DNA of 64,000 nucleotides from a virus. Lineage: Duplodnaviria; Caudoviricetes. The notes beneath the pieces were generated by a model. That model was given only the letters and a program-made list of their open reading frames with translations. It was not told where the DNA came from and did no database searches. The position numbers were made by a program, and so were the translations under genes. Below are positions 2,258 through 54,276 of this stretch, piece by piece (positions within the stretch are counted from its first letter, which is position 1; each line of letters opens with the position of its first letter). The stretch covers positions 32,001 to 96,000 of IMG/VR virus record IMGVR_UViG_3300044557_000104. One strand, given 5' to 3'.

Positions 2258-3547
2258 ATGAAAAAGTCCATTAAATGAACCCTTGGTATTACGACAGCTA
2301 CTCTAGCATTTGTTGTGGCAACAGGAGCATTCACAGTGTCTTCATATGCTGCAAAAGGTGATAAAGGTATTGACGTAAGTCATTATCAGAGTGCTACAAA
2401 GATCAAGGGATATGCAAGCGATAAGTTTATGATTTCCCAACTTGGTGGATATTATAATGGTACTTTCCGCCCACAGGAAACATATGCTACCCAAGTTCAG
2501 TACGCCATTGCCCAAGCAGTTCGTGCTCATACTTATATTTATCTGCAAGCATCTAATAATGCTCAGGTAGACCAAGCACTTGACTACTATTTACCTAAAG
2601 TTCAAACACCTAAAGGTTCTATTGTAGCCTTAGACGTTGAATCAGGGTCAACTACTACTAGTGCTATCCGCCATGGTTTAGATAGAGTTAAGGCAGCAGG
2701 TTACACCCCAGTGCTATATGGATATAAGAATTTCTTTGTATCACATGGTATTGATTATAATGGAATTGCTAAAGACTACACCTTGTGGTTGGCAGCATAT
2801 CCTAATTATAAGGTAACTACTGAGCCTAATTACCATATTTTCCCTAGTGCTAATAACGTTGGTATCTATCAATTTACCTCAACTTATGTAGCTGGTGGAT
2901 TAGATGGTAATATTGACCTGAATGGTATTACTGATAAAGGTTATGATGGTACATCTACTAGTGCTCAAGGTGGTACCAAGGTCGATACTAATAGTACAAC
3001 TCCTGCGATTAAAGCTGGTCAGGAAGCTAATAACACAGCTAAATCAGATATTAAAGCTGGAGATACTGTAAAGATTAACTTTAGTGCTACTCATTGGGCT
3101 AATGGTTCTAAATTGGCCAGCTTCGTTAAAGGTCACTCATATAAGGTATCTAGTGTAAGTGGTAATAAAGTATTGCTTAAATCTGGTAACACTTATATGG
3201 GATGGATGAACAAATCAGATGTTGAAATTCTTAGTGTTGGTACTCCTGTAACTACATCTACAGCTACTAAGAGCACAGCTAAGGTGTCTGGAACATTTAA
3301 AGATGGTGGATACACTATTACACGTCAACACGGTGTCTTCACTGCTGGACAGACCCTGAGAGTATTTGCTTATCCGGGTGCACAACCAACGGGAGCTAAA
3401 TATTTTAAAGGACAGCAAATTATCTATGATGGCTATGTAAGACGTGGCAACTACATTTATGTAAGCTATCAAATTAAAGGTGGCTACCACCATTATATTG
3501 CTGTTAGAAACGCAAATACACGGGTACTACTAGGTAGTATTCGTTAA
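2258..3547 (+). CDS. Endolysin: Sec signal peptide (interrupted by in-frame TGA at 2276-2278), GH25 muramidase, SH3-like cell-wall-binding domains
   Basis: GIDVSHYQ, ALDVE (DxE), LWLAAY and YQFTS...LDGN motifs of GH25; C-terminal SH3_5-like domain. ATG 2258 is in frame with the ORF-track GTG 2315 and gives MKKSIK*TLGITTATLAFVVATGAFTVSSYA|AKGD. Confidence 0.9.
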
Positions 3548-4115: not shown

Positions 4116-4535
4116 GTGAGTAACCGTTTAATTGATGGAATTAAAAATGAGATTGATGATACTAAAGATGAAACTACCATTACTAATGTTAAAAAGACTA
4201 TTGAGTTATTATCAGGTCGGTTACTGCAACAGGCATCAGAGGGTACCATTGATTTAGATATTAAAGATTTAAAAGACCTAACGTCAGTTCTAGCTATGTT
4301 GAAAGATTCTGGTGAAGATAATGGCCAAATGGGTACTCCACCTGTAAGTGGTAGGATGACTGTTTACTTTAACTCAGCTTTAAATGGTCAGAAAGATAAC
4401 CCAGAACAATCTGATGATGAAACCGATATTAGTCAAGGCTTGGAAGATATGTCTGAGGAAGATGTCAACAAAATGCTGAATGCTCAGTTTGAAGAACAAA
4501 ACAAAGAAAACTTTGACAAAAATAATGAAGCGTGA
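4116..4535 (+). CDS. terS: Putative terminase small subunit
   Basis: 139-aa acidic helical protein and the last CDS before terL, matching Herelleviridae synteny; assignment is by position and size. Confidence 0.55.
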   Translation: MSNRLIDGIKNEIDDTKDETTITNVKKTIELLSGRLLQQASEGTIDLDIKDLKDLTSVLAMLKDSGEDNGQMGTPPVSGRMTVYFNSALNGQKDNPEQSDDETDISQGLEDMSEEDVNKMLNAQFEEQNKENFDKNNEA

Positions 4536-4541
4536 TATACT
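4513..4541 (+). promoter_or_regulatory. Strong SigA-type promoter (sRNA cassette 1)
   Basis: TTGACA-17 bp-TATACT with extended TG. Confidence 0.85.
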
Positions 4542-4547
4542 ATAATC

Positions 4548-4744
4548 AAGTTGATAGATAAACCTTTTACATTATAATATCGTGCTAATTAAGTCATAAT
4601 CTTATCTATTAACCTAGTAGTAATACTTGTTGGAGCAGGTGTTACTATGAATTGTGGCAGGTATTCAATCGTTAAGATACTTGGCATTTTTGAAAACTCC
4701 TTTTTATTGATTGCAGAGAAGAGACTGTGTGAGGTCTCTTTTTT
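4548..4744 (+). ncRNA. Putative antisense sRNA 1
   Basis: Bounded by a consensus promoter and an intrinsic terminator (4719-4744); two 5' hairpins; anti-start CAT 4685-4687 and anti-SD CTCCTT 4697-4702. Confidence 0.65.
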
Positions 4745-4762
4745 GTTTGCCTGAATAAATAG

Positions 4763-4791
4763 TTGACAAAACATTTAATTCATGCTATTAT
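4763..4791 (+). promoter_or_regulatory. Strong SigA-type promoter (sRNA cassette 2)
   Basis: TTGACA-17 bp-TATTAT with extended TG. Confidence 0.85.
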
Positions 4792-4797
4792 AGTACT

Positions 4798-4909
4798 TGT
4801 AGATGAGTAATATCATCTACACTTGCTGATTTTCATGATGTTTGTTTTCAACCTATTTATATTTTTCCTCTACTTTGCCTTCCCCTTGTGTGCAATGTAG
4901 AGGTTTTTT
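4798..4909 (+). ncRNA. Putative antisense sRNA 2
   Basis: 5' hairpin 4799-4820, U-rich single-stranded region with CAT 4834-4836 and ACCT 4851-4854, terminator 4867-4909. Confidence 0.6.
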
Positions 4910-4918
4910 GTGCTATAA

Positions 4919-4947
4919 TTGACATTTTAAACAGATCATGATATTAT
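4919..4947 (+). promoter_or_regulatory. Strong SigA-type promoter (sRNA cassette 3)
   Basis: TTGACA-17 bp-TATTAT with extended TG. Confidence 0.85.
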
Positions 4948-4952
4948 ATGTA

Positions 4953-5091
4953 CATGGTAGGATGTTAATACATCTCATAGGGGTAAACCGCATACTACCT
5001 ATGAACTACCATTACAACTCATGGTTGTATACCTCCTTTTCCATAATATAGTTTACACTGCGGTTGGTATCCCACTTGGGGTACCTTTTTT
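4953..5091 (+). ncRNA. Putative antisense sRNA 3
   Basis: 5' stem; anti-start CAT 5020-5022 in a hairpin loop; anti-SD CCTCCTTT 5032-5039; terminator 5066-5091. Confidence 0.65.
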
Positions 5092-5153
5092 AATACTGTG
5101 GTGTTGCTATATTATAAATTACAAACAAATAAGTAACAGAAAGGATTGATAAA

Positions 5154-8100
5154 TTGAATGGTAAACAACTAGATTCTATGATTAGAGATACCTTTAATCT
5201 GGGGTCTAACGATCCAATTACACCAAAGCAATTGAACTATGTAATGGGACTAATGGTACCTTCTAACTACTTGTTGCAGAACCATACTATTGATGGTAAG
5301 CCAGTGACTTACAACATTCCTAACCGTAATGAGAATATGGCACGAGGACATCGACCTTGGCAGGTAGATATAATTAACGATATGAGTAAAAATTTGGTTG
5401 TTATCAAAGGTCGCCAAATGGGTTTAAGTGAAGTTGGTATAAGTCAAATGATATGGTTCGCAGATACACACTCCTATGACCACGTGAATTGTCTATATGC
5501 TTTTCCTAAGTAAGATGTGGGACTTTTAGGAGCAATCCTAATTGAAAAACTCTGTTAAACGGGCATAGCCAAGATAACTACTATATAAACAATAGGCTGG
5601 TAAGAAAGACTAAATCCCAATAGTAGGGGACAGAGTTAATCACCGTAGTAAATCAGTATTGTATTCGATACTGTAAATCTCTAGAGACTAAATTTCTAGG
5701 TAGCTACTAAAATGGTAGTAGTAAGAACTAGATAAGAAAAATTTTAACAGAGGTAATCAATATGCCTAAATTTAAGACACAAGATGAATTTATAAATGAT
5801 GTTTATGCTAAATATGGTGATCAGTTTTCTGTTATTGGAAAATACGTTAGAAGTACTACTCGTGTAAGAATTAAGTGTAATGTATGTGGATATACATTTG
5901 ATGCTATGCCAAATACTTTGCTCACTAGAGGACGAGGTTACAAATGTAAGAAGTGTCTGATGAGTAATCCTAATTATGCTAATGAAGTATATAAGGAGTA
6001 TAATGGTAAATTTTCTGTTTTAAGTAGTTACAAGGGTTGTGATACACCTGTTTTATATAGATGTAATGTTCATAATAAGGAGTTTAAAATGAAACCAACT
6101 TCCTTTAGAAGATCAAATTTTAAATGTCCTGTATGTAAATATAACCACGCTACTGAAAAGCAGAGAAAAACAGACACCCAATTTAAGTCAGAGTTGAATA
6201 AAGCACATCATGGTAGAATAATTGCGCTTGATAAATATGTTAACACACATACTAAAATAAAATTCAAGTGTACTGTATGTGGAAGTGTATTTTGTACTGA
6301 GCCAAATGCTGTTTTGAGAATTAGCGGATGCCCAAAGTGTTCTTATAGTACTGGTGAAACTATTATAAAAGACTTGTTTGATGATGAAGGTATTGATTAT
6401 GAGTCACCAAAGAAGTTTCCAGATTGTGTATATAAAAGGCAATTGCATTTTGACTTTTACCTAGAAAAGTATAACCTTCTTATTGAATTTGATGGGGAAC
6501 AGCATAATAAAGCTGTTGACTTCTTTGGTGGGGAGGAATACTTAAAAGATTATAAAATACGAGATAGTATTAAAAATGAATATGCTATTAAAAATAATAT
6601 TAATTTAATGCGTATACCATATATTAGAGATAAAAATGAAGTTTGCAAAATAATAATGAACTTTATTAAATATAAATCATCAGATTACCTTGTTAATAAA
6701 TAAGTAAAGCAGAGACTCTTATACCAAAAGTTAAGAGTAAGAGATAGTCCACTCCCTAAATAAATATTGGGAAACCAAGGGTATAAAGAACATATAAGCA
6801 AATGAACACATTCTACAAGCAACGTCTAAAGCCTGAGTTTACATCAGGTGGGTATTATAGTAGTTTGGTAGATGAAAAGCATGGAATGTCTATGGATCAA
6901 ATGAACATTAGAGATTCGTCAGTAACATTCCGTACATCAAGTAAGGGAGCAAGTCTTGAAGGACTCAAGGTTGACCTTGCTTCGTTGGATTTATAATAAG
7001 TCCAGTATTGTAGTAATATAATAATATAAACACTGTTAAACGGGCATAGCCAATATAACTACTATATAAACAATAGGCTGGTAAGAAAGACTAAATCCTA
7101 GTAGTAGAGGGCAGAGTTAATCACCGTACTAAATTAGTAGAAATACTATACAGGTCTAACGACTATCGAACAGGGAGTTAATTAAATGGAATTAACAAGA
7201 CTTAGTAGAGTAAAACTCATAGTAATATGAGAGGAAAAGCAGTGAGTCCTACACCAAAAGGTAGGATTAAGAGATAGTCTAAACCCTAAATAAATATTGG
7301 GAAACCAAGGGTACTAATTGGAATATGACAGATTGAGTCCTTTAGCTGAGCAATCAGCTATTCAATCAATGGCATCATCTAAGTATCAATTACTAAGAAG
7401 ATGGTCAACGCCTACAACAAGCCACTATGGTATCCACAAATTGTTTGAACAATCAGATCAACGATTCTGGACTCATAAATGCCCACATTGTGGATATTGT
7501 CAAGTAATGGATTATGATAAAAATATTAAACTTCTTAATAAAGATGGTATTGATGTCATTGGTAAAAAAGTATACCCTGGAACCTTTCAATATGTTTGTC
7601 AGAAATGTGGTAAGCCACTAGACAGATGGTATGACGGATTTTGGGATATTACATCACCCGGTGATGGTGGTCGTGCTCATGGGTACTCACTATCACAAAT
7701 GGACTGTGTGTGGATCAGTGCTTCAAAACTTAAAGAATCTGAAATGAATGCACCAAGTAAATCATACTTCTACAACTATAGTTTAGGTCGCCCATATCAA
7801 GATGATAGTTTATCCTTTAAGAGTGCAGATGTTTATTCTCACATTGCAGACTATGATCGTCCATTTGATAGAAGCAACTACACCCTAGTATCCGCTGGAA
7901 TTGATTGGGGTTAAATCTTAGCTCCACTATAGAGTAATCTATAGGAAAATAAAACACTGTTAAACGGGCATAGCCAATATAACTACTATATAAACAATAG
8001 GCTGGTAAGAAAGACTAAATCCTAGTAGTAGAGGACAGAGTTAATCACCGTAGTAAATCAGTAGTATAATAAATACTGTAAATCTCTAGAGACTATCGAA

Positions 8101-10222
8101 CAGGGAGTTAATTAAATGGAATTAACAAGACTTAGTAGAGTAAAACTCATAGTAATATGAGAGGAAAAGCAGTGAGTCCTACACCAAAAGGTAGGATTAA
8201 GAGATAGTCCAAGCCCTAAACAAATATTGGGAAACCAAGGGTATAAACTGGAGCACAATCATACCCTTACCATAATGGGAATGACTGATTCTGGTAGAAT
8301 TGATTTTATGCACCTCAAGGAAATTCCAAGAGCATTAGGTGCTGAGCATATTGAGGAAGACTTAGATATGGTTGTTAGAACCCTTAACCAGTTTGCACCA
8401 GATATCATAATTGCCGATAGAGGATTAAATTAAGTCCCGTACAGAAGTAATTCTGTATGTAAAACCATGTTAAACGGGCATAGAAAAATAGCTACTATAA
8501 AAAACAATATTCTGGTAAGAAAGACTAAATCCTAATAGTAGAGGAAAGAGTTAACCTACCGTGCTAAATCAGTATTATAATTAATATTGTAAAAGCCTAG
8601 AGACTAAATTTTTGGATAGCTATACAAACAGGTGTAGTGAAAACCAAATAAAAGCATACCTTTCTATATTATAAGTATATGGAAATTATATTTATAAACT
8701 TGGAAGGTGAATTGCATTACTAGAAGACGAACGAATGAAGAATTTATTGCTGAGGTTAAAGAACTTGTAAATGACGAGTACACCTTTCTAGACGAATATG
8801 ATGGTGTTTTAACTAAAATTAGAATTAAACATAATAAGTGTGGTCATGTGTACCTTACAACACCTAATTCATTTATTAATGGTGGTTCAAGGTGTAATAT
8901 ATGTAAGTCAAAAGAAGCAGGTATAAAGAAAACAAAGGATACAGAATGGTTGAAGCAAGAAGTATATAAAATAGCAGGTGACGATTATTCTGTTATCGGT
9001 GAATACCATATGGCCAAATATAAAGTAAAGCTAAAACACAATGTCTGCGGAAATACTTTTGACATGACAATAGGACATTTTAGGAGTGGTGAACGATGTC
9101 CAAGGTGTAGCTATAAGAAGCGTGCTAAGCAAAGAATGAAGACCCAAGATGAATTTAAAAGAGATGTATTAGATACATTAGGCCCTAAATATACAGTTAT
9201 AGGAGAGTATAAAGGGGATTCCATCCCTGTAGAAATAAAGCATTCATCCTGTGGAAAATCATATTTTGCCATTCCCTCCGCAGTTAAGCAGAGGTCAAAC
9301 ACATGTCCTTATTGTAGGCCATATCATGGGGAAGAATTTATAATGAATTGGTTAGACCACAATAGCATTGACTACGAAGTTCAAAAGAAGTTTTCTGATC
9401 TACGTGATTCTAAACCCCTAAGCTATGATTTCTTTATTCCAAAGGATAAGATACTGATCGAATATCAAGGGGTACAACATTTTAGACCAACTACGCATTT
9501 TGGCGGAGTACCCAGATTTAAAGTTCAGAAAAGACATGATGATATAAAGAGAGAATATGCAGTAACTAATGGGTACACCCTAATAGAAATTCCCTATACT
9601 TATAAGTCATATGAATCAATAGCAACGTTTTTAAGTAATGCAATAAATGTGTAAAGCATGGATACCATACCTAAAATTATGGTATAAGATATAGTCCAAA
9701 CCCTTAATAAATACTAGGAAACTAGGGGTATAAATTGTTAATGGTAATTATGTGGACAAACTCATTAAGTACTATGGTGAAGGAAGAGTATATGGTTGCA
9801 TTGTTAGATCGGCTAAGACTAATAATGATCCAATAGCTCACTTCACTAATACTGATGTCACCATAGATAAGTTGACACAAAACCTAATTATGTTGTCAAA
9901 CCTCAAACGTGGAGAGATTCATTTCTGGAGAGGGTCAGAACGGGATAAAGATATTAGAACATTAATTGCTCATTGGAGTAATGTTGTATTTCGTACTGAT
10001 GAAAAAGAAGATCCAGATACTCACGAGATTGGAACGCAACAGGTTATTCTAAGAAAAGGGCCAGATCATGCAGCTCAGAGCCAATGTTATGCAAATGTTG
10101 GTCTTAATAAGTTAATGCACGACTATGCAGAACGTAATAGTAATAAGACTGAGGTTTCATTATTGAGTACTGATCTAATTGCACCAGAAAAGACCTCTAT
10201 TCAACGTGAATATGATCTATAA
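5154..10222 (+). CDS. terL: Terminase large subunit, spliced: join(5154..5507,6790..6990,7321..7911,8251..8425,9738..10222), 601 aa
   Basis: Joined exons total 1806 nt in one frame and restore Walker A (KGRQMGLSE), YAFP|TYKQM, Walker B (SLD|EYD), STPT, nuclease GIDWG|EHN and ADRG|FNGNY motifs. Confidence 0.93.
5508..6789 (+). mobile_element. Group I intron 1 of terL (carries homing endonuclease)
   Basis: P1/IGS at 5515-5522, P3 5550-5556/6708-6714, P7 GAGACTA/TAGTCC, P9 GGAAACC hairpin. The 3' boundary is ambiguous by 1 nt (see findings). Confidence 0.9.
5762..6703 (+). CDS. Intron-encoded homing endonuclease (CxxC Zn-ribbon repeats plus Vsr/DUF559-like PD-(D/E)XK-type nuclease)
   Basis: Repeated C..C/CP.C modules; C-terminal FDFY...IEFDGEQH...D..KN..A....LMRIPY. 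Confidence 0.85.
   Translation: MPKFKTQDEFINDVYAKYGDQFSVIGKYVRSTTRVRIKCNVCGYTFDAMPNTLLTRGRGYKCKKCLMSNPNYANEVYKEYNGKFSVLSSYKGCDTPVLYRCNVHNKEFKMKPTSFRRSNFKCPVCKYNHATEKQRKTDTQFKSELNKAHHGRIIALDKYVNTHTKIKFKCTVCGSVFCTEPNAVLRISGCPKCSYSTGETIIKDLFDDEGIDYESPKKFPDCVYKRQLHFDFYLEKYNLLIEFDGEQHNKAVDFFGGEEYLKDYKIRDSIKNEYAIKNNINLMRIPYIRDKNEVCKIIMNFIKYKSSDYLVNK
6991..7320 (+). mobile_element. Group I intron 2 of terL (no ORF)
   Basis: Exon TTGGAT pairs with GTCCAG (U.G at the splice site); P7 ACGACTA/TAGTCT; terminal G 7320; removal restores SLD-EYD. Confidence 0.92.
7912..8250 (+). mobile_element. Group I intron 3 of terL (no ORF)
   Basis: Exon TGGGGT pairs with GCTCCA; core nearly identical to intron 2; terminal G 8250. 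Confidence 0.92.
8426..9737 (+). mobile_element. Group I intron 4 of terL (carries homing endonuclease)
   Basis: Exon GGAT pairs with GTCC 8434-8437; P10 ATTAA/TTAAT; P7 GAGACTA/TAGTCC; terminal G 9737. Confidence 0.9.
8707..9654 (+). CDS. Intron-encoded homing endonuclease (Zn-ribbon repeats plus Vsr/DUF559-like nuclease)
   Basis: H..CG...CP.C repeats; YDFFIP...IEYQGVQH...DDIK..YA....LIEIPY. Confidence 0.85.
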   Translation: MNCITRRRTNEEFIAEVKELVNDEYTFLDEYDGVLTKIRIKHNKCGHVYLTTPNSFINGGSRCNICKSKEAGIKKTKDTEWLKQEVYKIAGDDYSVIGEYHMAKYKVKLKHNVCGNTFDMTIGHFRSGERCPRCSYKKRAKQRMKTQDEFKRDVLDTLGPKYTVIGEYKGDSIPVEIKHSSCGKSYFAIPSAVKQRSNTCPYCRPYHGEEFIMNWLDHNSIDYEVQKKFSDLRDSKPLSYDFFIPKDKILIEYQGVQHFRPTTHFGGVPRFKVQKRHDDIKREYAVTNGYTLIEIPYTYKSYESIATFLSNAINV

Positions 10223-22641: not shown

Positions 22642-23256
22642 ATGGCTTTATCAGAAGAAGAAAAACGTAAGGCAATGCAGCAATTGCGTGACCAAGATAA
22701 ACAACGTCAAGCAAAAGAAGCGGAAGCTAATAAAGATGCTAAACCAGTTGATGTAATTAAGCAGGAATCTAAGGACGATAAGGATGCCATTATTGAATCA
22801 TTAAAATCTCAGATTGCTAAGAAAGATGAAACAATTGGTAGTTTAAAGAGTCAAGCTAATGATCAATTTAGTGAAAAGACATTCTTGCAGGAGAATGAAG
22901 CGCTTAATGCAGTTCTTAAAGGTAATGATGGTAAGAACTTTGTTAAGGAATATAACTTAGATGTTGAAAATAGTGATAACAAATTACATTTCATTGTTAA
23001 GATGCACTTACCTAATGTTATGGAAATTTCAGCTATTGAACAGGAATTTGTAGACTTAACTAAGGGGCGTGGAAATAGCTTTAGTCAAACTAACCAAATG
23101 TTATTCCGTGCCATCTCATACTTCCGTGTAGTGGGAGATGAAGTTCCAGAATGGTTTAAAGACCCAGAAAGTACCTACCGTTGGGATATTATCCTAAGTA
23201 CATGGTTGGATTACGAGGAATGGGAAGACTCCTTTCGAGACCAGCAATTCAAGTAA
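22642..23256 (+). CDS. Tail assembly chaperone (G)
   Basis: Between tube and tape measure; FRVVG..VPEWF...W.D...SFR motif. Confidence 0.75.
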   Translation: MALSEEEKRKAMQQLRDQDKQRQAKEAEANKDAKPVDVIKQESKDDKDAIIESLKSQIAKKDETIGSLKSQANDQFSEKTFLQENEALNAVLKGNDGKNFVKEYNLDVENSDNKLHFIVKMHLPNVMEISAIEQEFVDLTKGRGNSFSQTNQMLFRAISYFRVVGDEVPEWFKDPESTYRWDIILSTWLDYEEWEDSFRDQQFK

Positions 23257-54246: not shown

Positions 54247-54276
54247 TTGACAAAACACCCTTAACCATGCTATACT
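54247..54276 (+). promoter_or_regulatory. SigA-type early promoter of the replication operon
   Basis: TTGACA-18 bp-TATACT with extended TG. Confidence 0.75.

Follow-up and report, generated by a model that had tools for sequence, protein, structure and literature searches.

Between the terminase genes terS and terL of a lytic, Herelleviridae-like phage of the Lactobacillaceae there are very probably three genuine non-coding RNA (ncRNA) genes that are under selection. The window analysed, 64,000 nucleotides (nt) of DNA, corresponds to positions 32001-96000 of the 118,436-bp IMG/VR record IMGVR_UViG_3300044557_000104, the completeness of which is estimated at 87% (about 13% of the phage genome is absent); positions are those of the window unless marked as genome positions or preceded by a locus label. 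The RNA array (4513-5093) is located between terS and terL exon 1, in a spacer of 618 bp, which can be pictured as a small 'RNA island' where three structured RNAs would be transcribed separately, each from a sigma-A-type promoter to an intrinsic terminator. One of them, cassette 3, may act in trans as an antisense repressor that covers the translation start sites of the phage's own genes; we prefer this reading tentatively, and put it at slightly under an even chance.

Organisation of the array

The three units are arranged in tandem on the plus strand. Their promoters, P1 (4513-4541; TTGACA-17-TATACT), P2 (4763-4791; TTGACA-17-TATTAT) and P3 (4919-4947; TTGACA-17-TATTAT), all carry the TG extension and each match the TTGACA-17-TGnTAnnnT pattern at 11 of 12 positions; P1 is conserved in related phages. 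Strict extended -10 promoters of this kind occur five times in the 118,436 bp, both strands included, and three of the five lie together in the array, within 430 bp. The fourth drives a protein gene at 54247 and the fifth precedes a gene discussed below. The promoter sequences point to early transcription by the host RNA polymerase.

The predicted cassette 1 ncRNA (4548-4747, about 200 nt) has a 5' hairpin (4550-4613), two further hairpins (4617-4648 and 4654-4687, the latter with CAU at its 3' base), a single-stranded stretch ACUCCUUUU..AUUGAUUGC (4688-4712) and a terminator (4713-4747). Cassette 2 (4798-4910, about 113 nt) consists of a 5' hairpin (4798-4821), a long U-rich single strand with CAU and a weak anti-Shine-Dalgarno (anti-SD) sequence, and a terminator (4867-4910) that is adjoined by a TGCTATAAT box (4911-4919, plus strand). 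In cassette 3 (4954-5093, about 140 nt) a three-way 5' domain of 59 nt (4954-5012) is followed by a hairpin with CAU in the loop (5013-5029), a single strand containing ACCUCCUUU (5030-5065) and the terminator (5066-5093). Common to the three predicted RNAs are one or more 5' hairpins, a single-stranded CU-rich stretch and a terminator made of a stem-loop and U-tract, and their folding free energies are 3.3-4.5 standard deviations below those of dinucleotide shuffles (z of -3.6, -4.5 and -3.3 for cassettes 1, 2 and 3, respectively). As judged from the sequence, every unit has its own promoter and Rho-independent terminator bounding a short transcript, which bears out the initial annotation of three tandem promoter-hairpin-pyrimidine-terminator units between terS and terL. 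RNA decay in Firmicutes is 5'-end-dependent, from which it may be supposed that the 5'-terminal hairpin stabilises each RNA, leaving an exposed stretch that would mirror a ribosome-binding site (RBS) ahead of the terminator.

The reverse complements of the exposed stretches do read as translation-initiation regions (TIRs), as first reported: AAAGGAG-9-ATG at 4687 in cassette 1, AGGT-14-ATG in cassette 2 and AAAAGGAGG-9-ATG at 5023 in cassette 3. This anti-SD/anti-AUG design is real, and anti-SD words are strongly enriched: of the five CTCCTT copies that the plus strand carries in the 85-kb block of plus-strand genes, two are inside the 546-nt array. ACCTCCTTT is present once in the whole genome, within cassette 3, and its ACCUCCUUU/ACCTCCTTT motif is one which we take to match the anti-SD sequence at the 3' end of 16S rRNA in Firmicutes.

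Conservation among related phages

Searches of the GenBank phages and IMG/VR by DNA, by the terS protein or by the exact cassette 3 core revealed no close relatives. Exact-protein look-up in Logan and ENA assemblies gave 13 related loci in which terS is at least 90% identical. In a comparison of five full-length genomes, 24.5% of terS third-codon positions were variable, as were 26% of sites in the P1 segment and 32% in the spacer and P2; the corresponding values were 17% for cassette 1, 8% for cassette 2 and 2.9% for cassette 3. Cassette 3 is present and at least 98.6% identical in 11 of the 11 relatives whose contig extends there, even in a lineage in which the start of terL is only 85% identical, and it may be viewed as the core unit of the island.

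Loops vary while the stems persist through one-sided and compensatory changes. For the 50 pairs of cassette 1, 38 were invariant, 11 were kept by a one-sided change, one was compensatory and three showed a break; the terminator stem of cassette 2 has a compensatory T-A to A-T swap and that of cassette 3 a G.U to A-U change. The divergence among these relatives is too small for strong covariation statistics. Because cassette number varies and the stems change with pairing kept, selection is likely to act on the RNA, and a packaging-site or other DNA-level role was set aside.

The number of cassettes across the 13 relatives is one to three, in keeping with the modular array first proposed. All three are present in L034, L037, L039, L040 and L041, and also in L042, in which a deletion shortens the 5' hairpin of cassette 1 and the hairpin is preserved. 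L031-L033 have cassette 3 alone, cassettes 1 and 2 being absent. In these three loci the TGATATA box of P1 is joined directly to the -35 element of P3, and the three-cassette genomes have the TGCTATAAT box at that spot, which suggests recombination between -10-like boxes. The TGCTATAAT box is therefore the likely recombination junction for cassette gain and loss, and units may more generally come and go by recombination at the repeated promoter and terminator boxes.

The island would also attract TnpB/omegaRNA elements. A TnpB (IS605 OrfB) gene splits cassette 2 in L038 (L038:3718-4594), and in L035 and L036 the terS-terL spacer contains an additional promoter-driven unit, 'cassette X', which aligns with three omegaRNA scaffolds of the phage genome and ends in ..AGTAGTYCAC. 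Orphan omegaRNA-like scaffolds are located at L035:1330-1610, L035:2150-2355 and L036:800-1085. The scaffold end in L036 is followed by a stretch of cassette 1, CTATTAACCTAGTAGTAAT; in the window this stretch comes after TTAT (about 4602-4605). The omegaRNA scaffold itself (ending GAGTAGTYCAY beside the guide) is not present in cassettes 1-3. Other TnpB (IS605 OrfB) insertions lie upstream of terS (L034:1677-2825) and in the leader of a 676-amino acid (aa) gene (L078:1-300, in L078/L079), and these elements appear to be very active in the phage lineage. A perfect 17-nt same-strand repeat, TCTATTAACCTAGTAGT, was found at 4605-4621, in the 3' arm of the 5' hairpin of cassette 1, and 66 kb away at genome 103534-103550 (BLAST E value of 0.018). 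The distant copy is intergenic; its flanks are unrelated and are not an omegaRNA scaffold, nor does it adjoin one.

Pairing of cassette 3 with phage translation starts

The strongest contiguous helix that cassette 3 can form with the minus strand, genome-wide, is 18 bp long, including two G.U pairs, and joins 5019-5036 to GGGGGUAUACAACUAUGA. This target coincides exactly with the SD, spacer and AUG of the 676-aa gene (genome 22922-22905, start at 22908, minus strand). On the plus strand the strongest helix, of 17 bp, falls on the start region of a 207-aa Gad2-like gene (genome 117157) and, judged by eye, stretches to about 25 bp over a one-base bulge. The start of a 114-aa gene (genome 24250, minus strand) offers 14 bp and a further run of about 6. 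The top helix on either strand lands, in register, on a TIR. In the proposed mechanism the anti-TIR segment of cassette 3, UCAUGGUUGUAUACCUCCUUUUCC (5019-5042, plus strand), would pair across the SD, spacer and AUG of all three genes.

Against the 394 SD-bearing start regions of the phage, the TIR scores of 41, 35 and 33 were attained by 0, 1 and 0 of 400 dinucleotide shuffles, respectively. When CCUCC and CAU were kept in place, a score of 41 was attained by 4 of 2000 shuffles; 5 of 394 reverse-complemented real TIRs also attained it. The resulting p for the cassette 3 helix is about 0.002-0.013 in the TIR-restricted nulls and about 0.08 in the whole-genome and reciprocal nulls. The TIR of the 676-aa gene in L081 has three substitutions inside the duplex and pairing is kept at all three (G.U to A-U once; C-G to U.G twice); cassette 3 of L042, from the same sample, is identical to the window sequence.

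Several observations weigh against a repressor role. The significance varies with the null, since 5 of 60 whole-genome shuffles attain the score of the cassette 3 helix and a reciprocal test showed that 5 of 60 other TIRs can pair just as well with some site of the genome. RNAduplex energies against the TIRs were no better than those of shuffles, a ranking that is non-discriminating because shuffled CU-rich RNAs bind purine-rich TIRs equally well. Part of the anti-TIR segment lies within a 7-bp hairpin, and no anti-TIR partner above background was found in three distant phages with the 676-aa gene family. Cassettes 1 and 2 showed no enrichment for any phage TIR. Lastly, cassette 3 is conserved throughout, the 59-nt 5' domain included, which exceeds the need of a simple seed-pairing RNA and hints at an additional or different role. 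The suggestion in the initial annotation that each cassette holds a captured antisense gene start finds statistical support for cassette 3, in the TIR-restricted tests, and no partner for cassettes 1 and 2; the partners found are genes of the phage itself, outside the window, rather than the host, prophage or defence mRNAs envisaged there.

The candidate targets of cassette 3 are 14 kb and 80 kb from the array. The nearer, the 676-aa gene (genome 20878-22908; L073:6878-8908; minus strand; 14 kb), precedes SbcD-like, helicase and DNA-polymerase genes. Upstream of it are the fifth extended -10 promoter and a structured leader of about 200 nt (genome 23149-22909; L073:8909-9149; minus strand), which contains two imperfect repeats of about 60 nt and a 16-bp terminator-like hairpin directly ahead of the TIR that pairs with cassette 3. 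This leader may function as an attenuator or be another ncRNA. The 676-aa protein lacks a Pfam domain, and members of its family are encoded on more than 200 IMG/VR phage contigs; the AlphaFold model of the protein (pLDDT of 78) is composed of helical repeats and a C-terminal TerD-like beta-sandwich, and Foldseek comparison of the C-terminal domain with TerD structures gave an E value of 4e-4 and a TM of 0.57. A Ro60/Y-RNA relationship was rejected for this protein: there was no Pfam or PDB sequence match, BLASTP against the Rsr-like CKA15_055 gave E = 0.07, and no Ro60/TROVE structure was among the Foldseek matches listed for the model. The 207-aa protein is nucleotidyltransferase-like. Its Gad2-like label rests on the precomputed Pfam Gad2 match of a close relative, Gad2 not being returned in a direct Pfam search. 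Gad2 is an anti-Gabija protein (bioRxiv 10.1101/2023.05.01.538930).

Alternative explanations

The constraint on the whole 140 nt of cassette 3, its three-way 5' domain included, would also be expected if the RNAs acted through their folds, either as mimics of the 16S rRNA 3' tail or as decoys or ligands of some protein. Such a protein could be an RNase or RNA-binding protein of the host, an immune sensor in the manner of cabRNA recognition, or one encoded by the phage, for instance by the 676-aa gene. The mimic version draws on ACCUCCUUU, which is single-copy in the genome, and on its presumed likeness to the 16S rRNA anti-SD noted above. In staphylococcal phages the terS-terL region gives rise to structured RNAs, the CBASS-activating cabRNAs, that are bound by host CBASS cyclases (PMC10686824), and three ncRNA loci of the Listeria Herelleviridae phage CKA15 are hyper-abundant (PMC12282133). 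No nameable protein partner emerged. The 676-aa protein is TerD-like at its C-terminus and showed no Ro60/TROVE match among those listed. The Rfam 15 covariance models (6S, Y RNA, tmRNA, HEARO and others) gave no gathering-score match in the window and only sub-threshold junk at E values up to 10 over 4400-5900, and a tRNA/tmRNA search was likewise negative. A purely fold-based role would, moreover, make the in-register TIR complementarity a coincidence, and we consider it unlikely.

The two precedents resemble the array in part. The cabRNAs are hairpin-rich RNAs at the terS/terL boundary, a positional parallel only; they are pieces of terminase mRNA within the coding sequence and have no dedicated promoter, terminator or anti-SD design. 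The CKA15_059-061 loci are three adjacent promoter-bearing, SD-less loci, together spanning about 490 bp, that are thought to be ncRNAs of unknown function (PMC12282133). As a trio of putative ncRNA loci in the same phage family they are the closest precedent in that family, but they lie in a tRNA cluster, on the opposite strand and about 7 kb from the terminase genes. They reportedly have neither intrinsic terminators nor UCCC motifs (PMC12282133), and on reading by eye their sequence showed no resemblance to the cassettes.

The initial annotation had proposed that the RNAs are made early and occlude the RBSs of host, prophage or defence mRNAs, each cassette being a captured antisense start of a foreign gene. 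Sigma-A-type promoters suit early expression and the anti-SD/anti-AUG design is genuine; the search covered neither the true host strain nor about 13% of the phage genome. Cassettes 1 and 2 have no phage target, so a host target is still conceivable for them, and they may be optional units of like design with targets that perhaps belong to the true host or to the missing part of the phage. The search for complementary host or plasmid gene starts gave no near-perfect match in the genomes, plasmids or phage collections examined. Paucilactobacillus, the best host lead, is the likely host genus; a Dps gene in the spacer of L035 is 91% identical to Dps of Paucilactobacillus vaccinostercus. No source with three or fewer mismatches was found for the 24 nt of cassette 3 in 301 Lactobacillaceae genomes, nor for cassettes 1 and 2 (24-25 nt) in seven Paucilactobacillus genomes. 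When the array was compared by BLAST with two Paucilactobacillus genomes, 72,556 PLSDB plasmids and 50,697 GenBank phages, the matches were at chance level only. With the top partners of cassette 3 being phage genes, silencing of foreign mRNAs by the array seems improbable, and the findings do not support an RNA-based anti-defence array.

The spacer may be regarded, by analogy, as a hyperplastic hot spot in the manner of the PeSL regions of T4. PeSLs (promoter-early stem-loops) are cassettes with a regulatory role that are mobile among T4-type phages and in which modules are added and removed by recombination between units (Arbiol et al. 2010, PMC2839356). It could be argued that the transcripts here are functionless, the promoter and terminator cassettes serving to insulate terS from terL transcription and to mediate modular recombination. 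PeSLs too are strong sigma-70-like promoters with terminator stem-loops in hyperplastic regions (PMC2839356), the ends of indels in the array coincide with promoter and terminator boxes, as PeSL indels are bounded by repeats, and in the relatives the insertions of TnpB, omegaRNA and Dps mark this site as a hot spot. However, the transcribed bodies of cassettes 3 and 2 vary less than the P1/P2 promoter and spacer segments, and 3-8 times less than synonymous sites; stems in the array are kept by compensatory changes. PeSLs are short junctions that flank small protein genes in T4-like coliphages, whereas the units of the array enclose 110-200 nt of structured non-coding RNA, the modules carrying conserved ncRNAs of 113-200 nt. 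That the RNAs are without function is therefore very doubtful.

Neither strand of the array codes for a conserved protein. The claim that the units have no plus-strand open reading frame (ORF) needs amending, as ORFs of 35-42 aa are present, and holds in so far as none is conserved in the relatives. The ATG of a 35-aa ORF (4647) is ACG in relatives. A hydrophobic 42-aa ORF (5021) overlaps cassette 3, has no SD and reads through the terminator; it contains a stop codon in L036 and its substitutions are 100% non-synonymous. On the minus strand, a 32-aa ORF in cassette 1 is unique to the window, a 1-nt indel reducing it to four codons (MPST-stop or MPSI-stop) in all relatives, because of which the proposed likeness to RelE/YafQ N-termini is spurious. 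The minus-strand ORFs of cassettes 2 and 3 have seven codons each, and promoter matches on that strand are weak and reflect AT-palindromes only. A conserved small toxin ORF overlapped by an antisense RNA, as in type I toxin-antitoxin systems, was not found. With the ORFs of both strands broken or lost in relatives, coding readings were rejected, and it is extremely unlikely that the mini-ORFs are real genes (type I toxin-antitoxin-like or micropeptides), despite the SD-like motifs upstream of the minus-strand ATGs and the hydrophobicity of the 42-aa ORF.

Comparison with known regulatory RNAs

For cassette 3 as a repressor of phage genes, the nearest functional parallels are the c4 RNA of P1/P7 (acting on the ant leader), P22 sar and lambda OOP, which are RBS-occluding phage antisense RNAs in the immunity circuits of temperate phages. 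In these, as proposed for cassette 3, an exposed segment of a short phage RNA pairs with the SD and start of a phage mRNA and blocks translation. They are cis-encoded or processed from the target operon, whereas the array consists of three stand-alone genes in the packaging module of a lytic Herelleviridae-like phage, with distant candidate targets. The RNAIII/Rsa RNAs of S. aureus, RoxS of B. subtilis and LhrC of Listeria are small RNAs with C/U-rich seeds that pair with the SD and are chromosomal regulators of stress or virulence. The cassettes share with them single-stranded C/U motifs, an Hfq-independent style and a 3' terminator hairpin; no relation to these RNAs was found by sequence or in Rfam. 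To our knowledge the regulatory RNAs of strictly lytic Gram-positive phages are almost unexplored.

A broader scheme is an evolvable 'anti-start-site' RNA system in which each cassette would come about when an inverted junction of a terminator and a translation start is captured and placed downstream of a promoter of host type. Cassette 3 would then do as an RNA what translational repressors such as RegA do in T4, shutting off early or middle genes of the phage, among them the one for the anti-defence enzyme resembling Gad2 and the one that opens the replication operon, and cassettes 1 and 2 would be swappable against host or competitor mRNAs. Taken as a whole, this scheme is speculative and improbable. 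The narrower proposal of cassette 3 as a repressor offers, from sequence alone, a regulator-target pair that is open to testing, cassette 3 against the starts of the replication-operon gene and the Gad2-like gene, and a natural series of phages with one, two and three cassettes exists. If true, lytic phages would time or limit their own gene expression through trans-acting RNAs, and RNA genes would move as promoter-to-terminator modules at a recombination hot spot that they share with TnpB/omegaRNA elements.

Genomic setting

The gene for the small terminase subunit, terS (4116-4535, plus strand), matches PHROG 1063 with an E value of 5.5e-14, and its TGA stop codon (4533-4535) also serves as the TGn of the P1 extended -10 element. 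Exon 1 of the gene for the large subunit, terL (5154-5513, plus strand), matches PHROG 9315/675. The phage is Herelleviridae-like; the identity of its terL exon 1 to Herelleviridae phages does not exceed 56%, and the top match is Lactobacillus phage LfeInf. The terS-terL spacer is inserted sequence, as the two genes adjoin or overlap in LfeInf, Brochothrix phage A9 and Aerococcus phage AVP.

Downstream of the array terL has its own late-type promoter, a late-promoter-like motif TGCTATATTATAAAT (5105-5119, plus strand) being situated directly upstream of the gene. Many plus-strand structural genes are preceded by the motif T[ATG]CTATATTATAAAT, which has sites at 2203, 5105, 8662, 11875, 14011, 18192 and 62748 and at genome 104476 and is probably the late (or middle) promoter consensus of the phage.

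The terL gene has at least three exons (5154-5513, 7318-7914 and 9752-10222). The two inserts that separate them, within 5514-9751, each contain one HNH endonuclease ORF (5762-6703 and 8707-9654; PHROG 559). In L034 and L037 terL exon 1 is shorter (88-96 aa), so that intron positions vary among close relatives. The GH25 endolysin ORF (2315-3547) encodes 410 aa from a GTG start and 429 aa in several relatives; the copy in the window may therefore begin further upstream or be interrupted. Elsewhere in the genome, a match to the Rfam Transposase-1 RNA (RF03014) at L073:11222-11282 on the minus strand (genome 25222-25282), with 43.2 bits against a gathering score of 42.8, adjoins a 397-aa minus-strand ORF.

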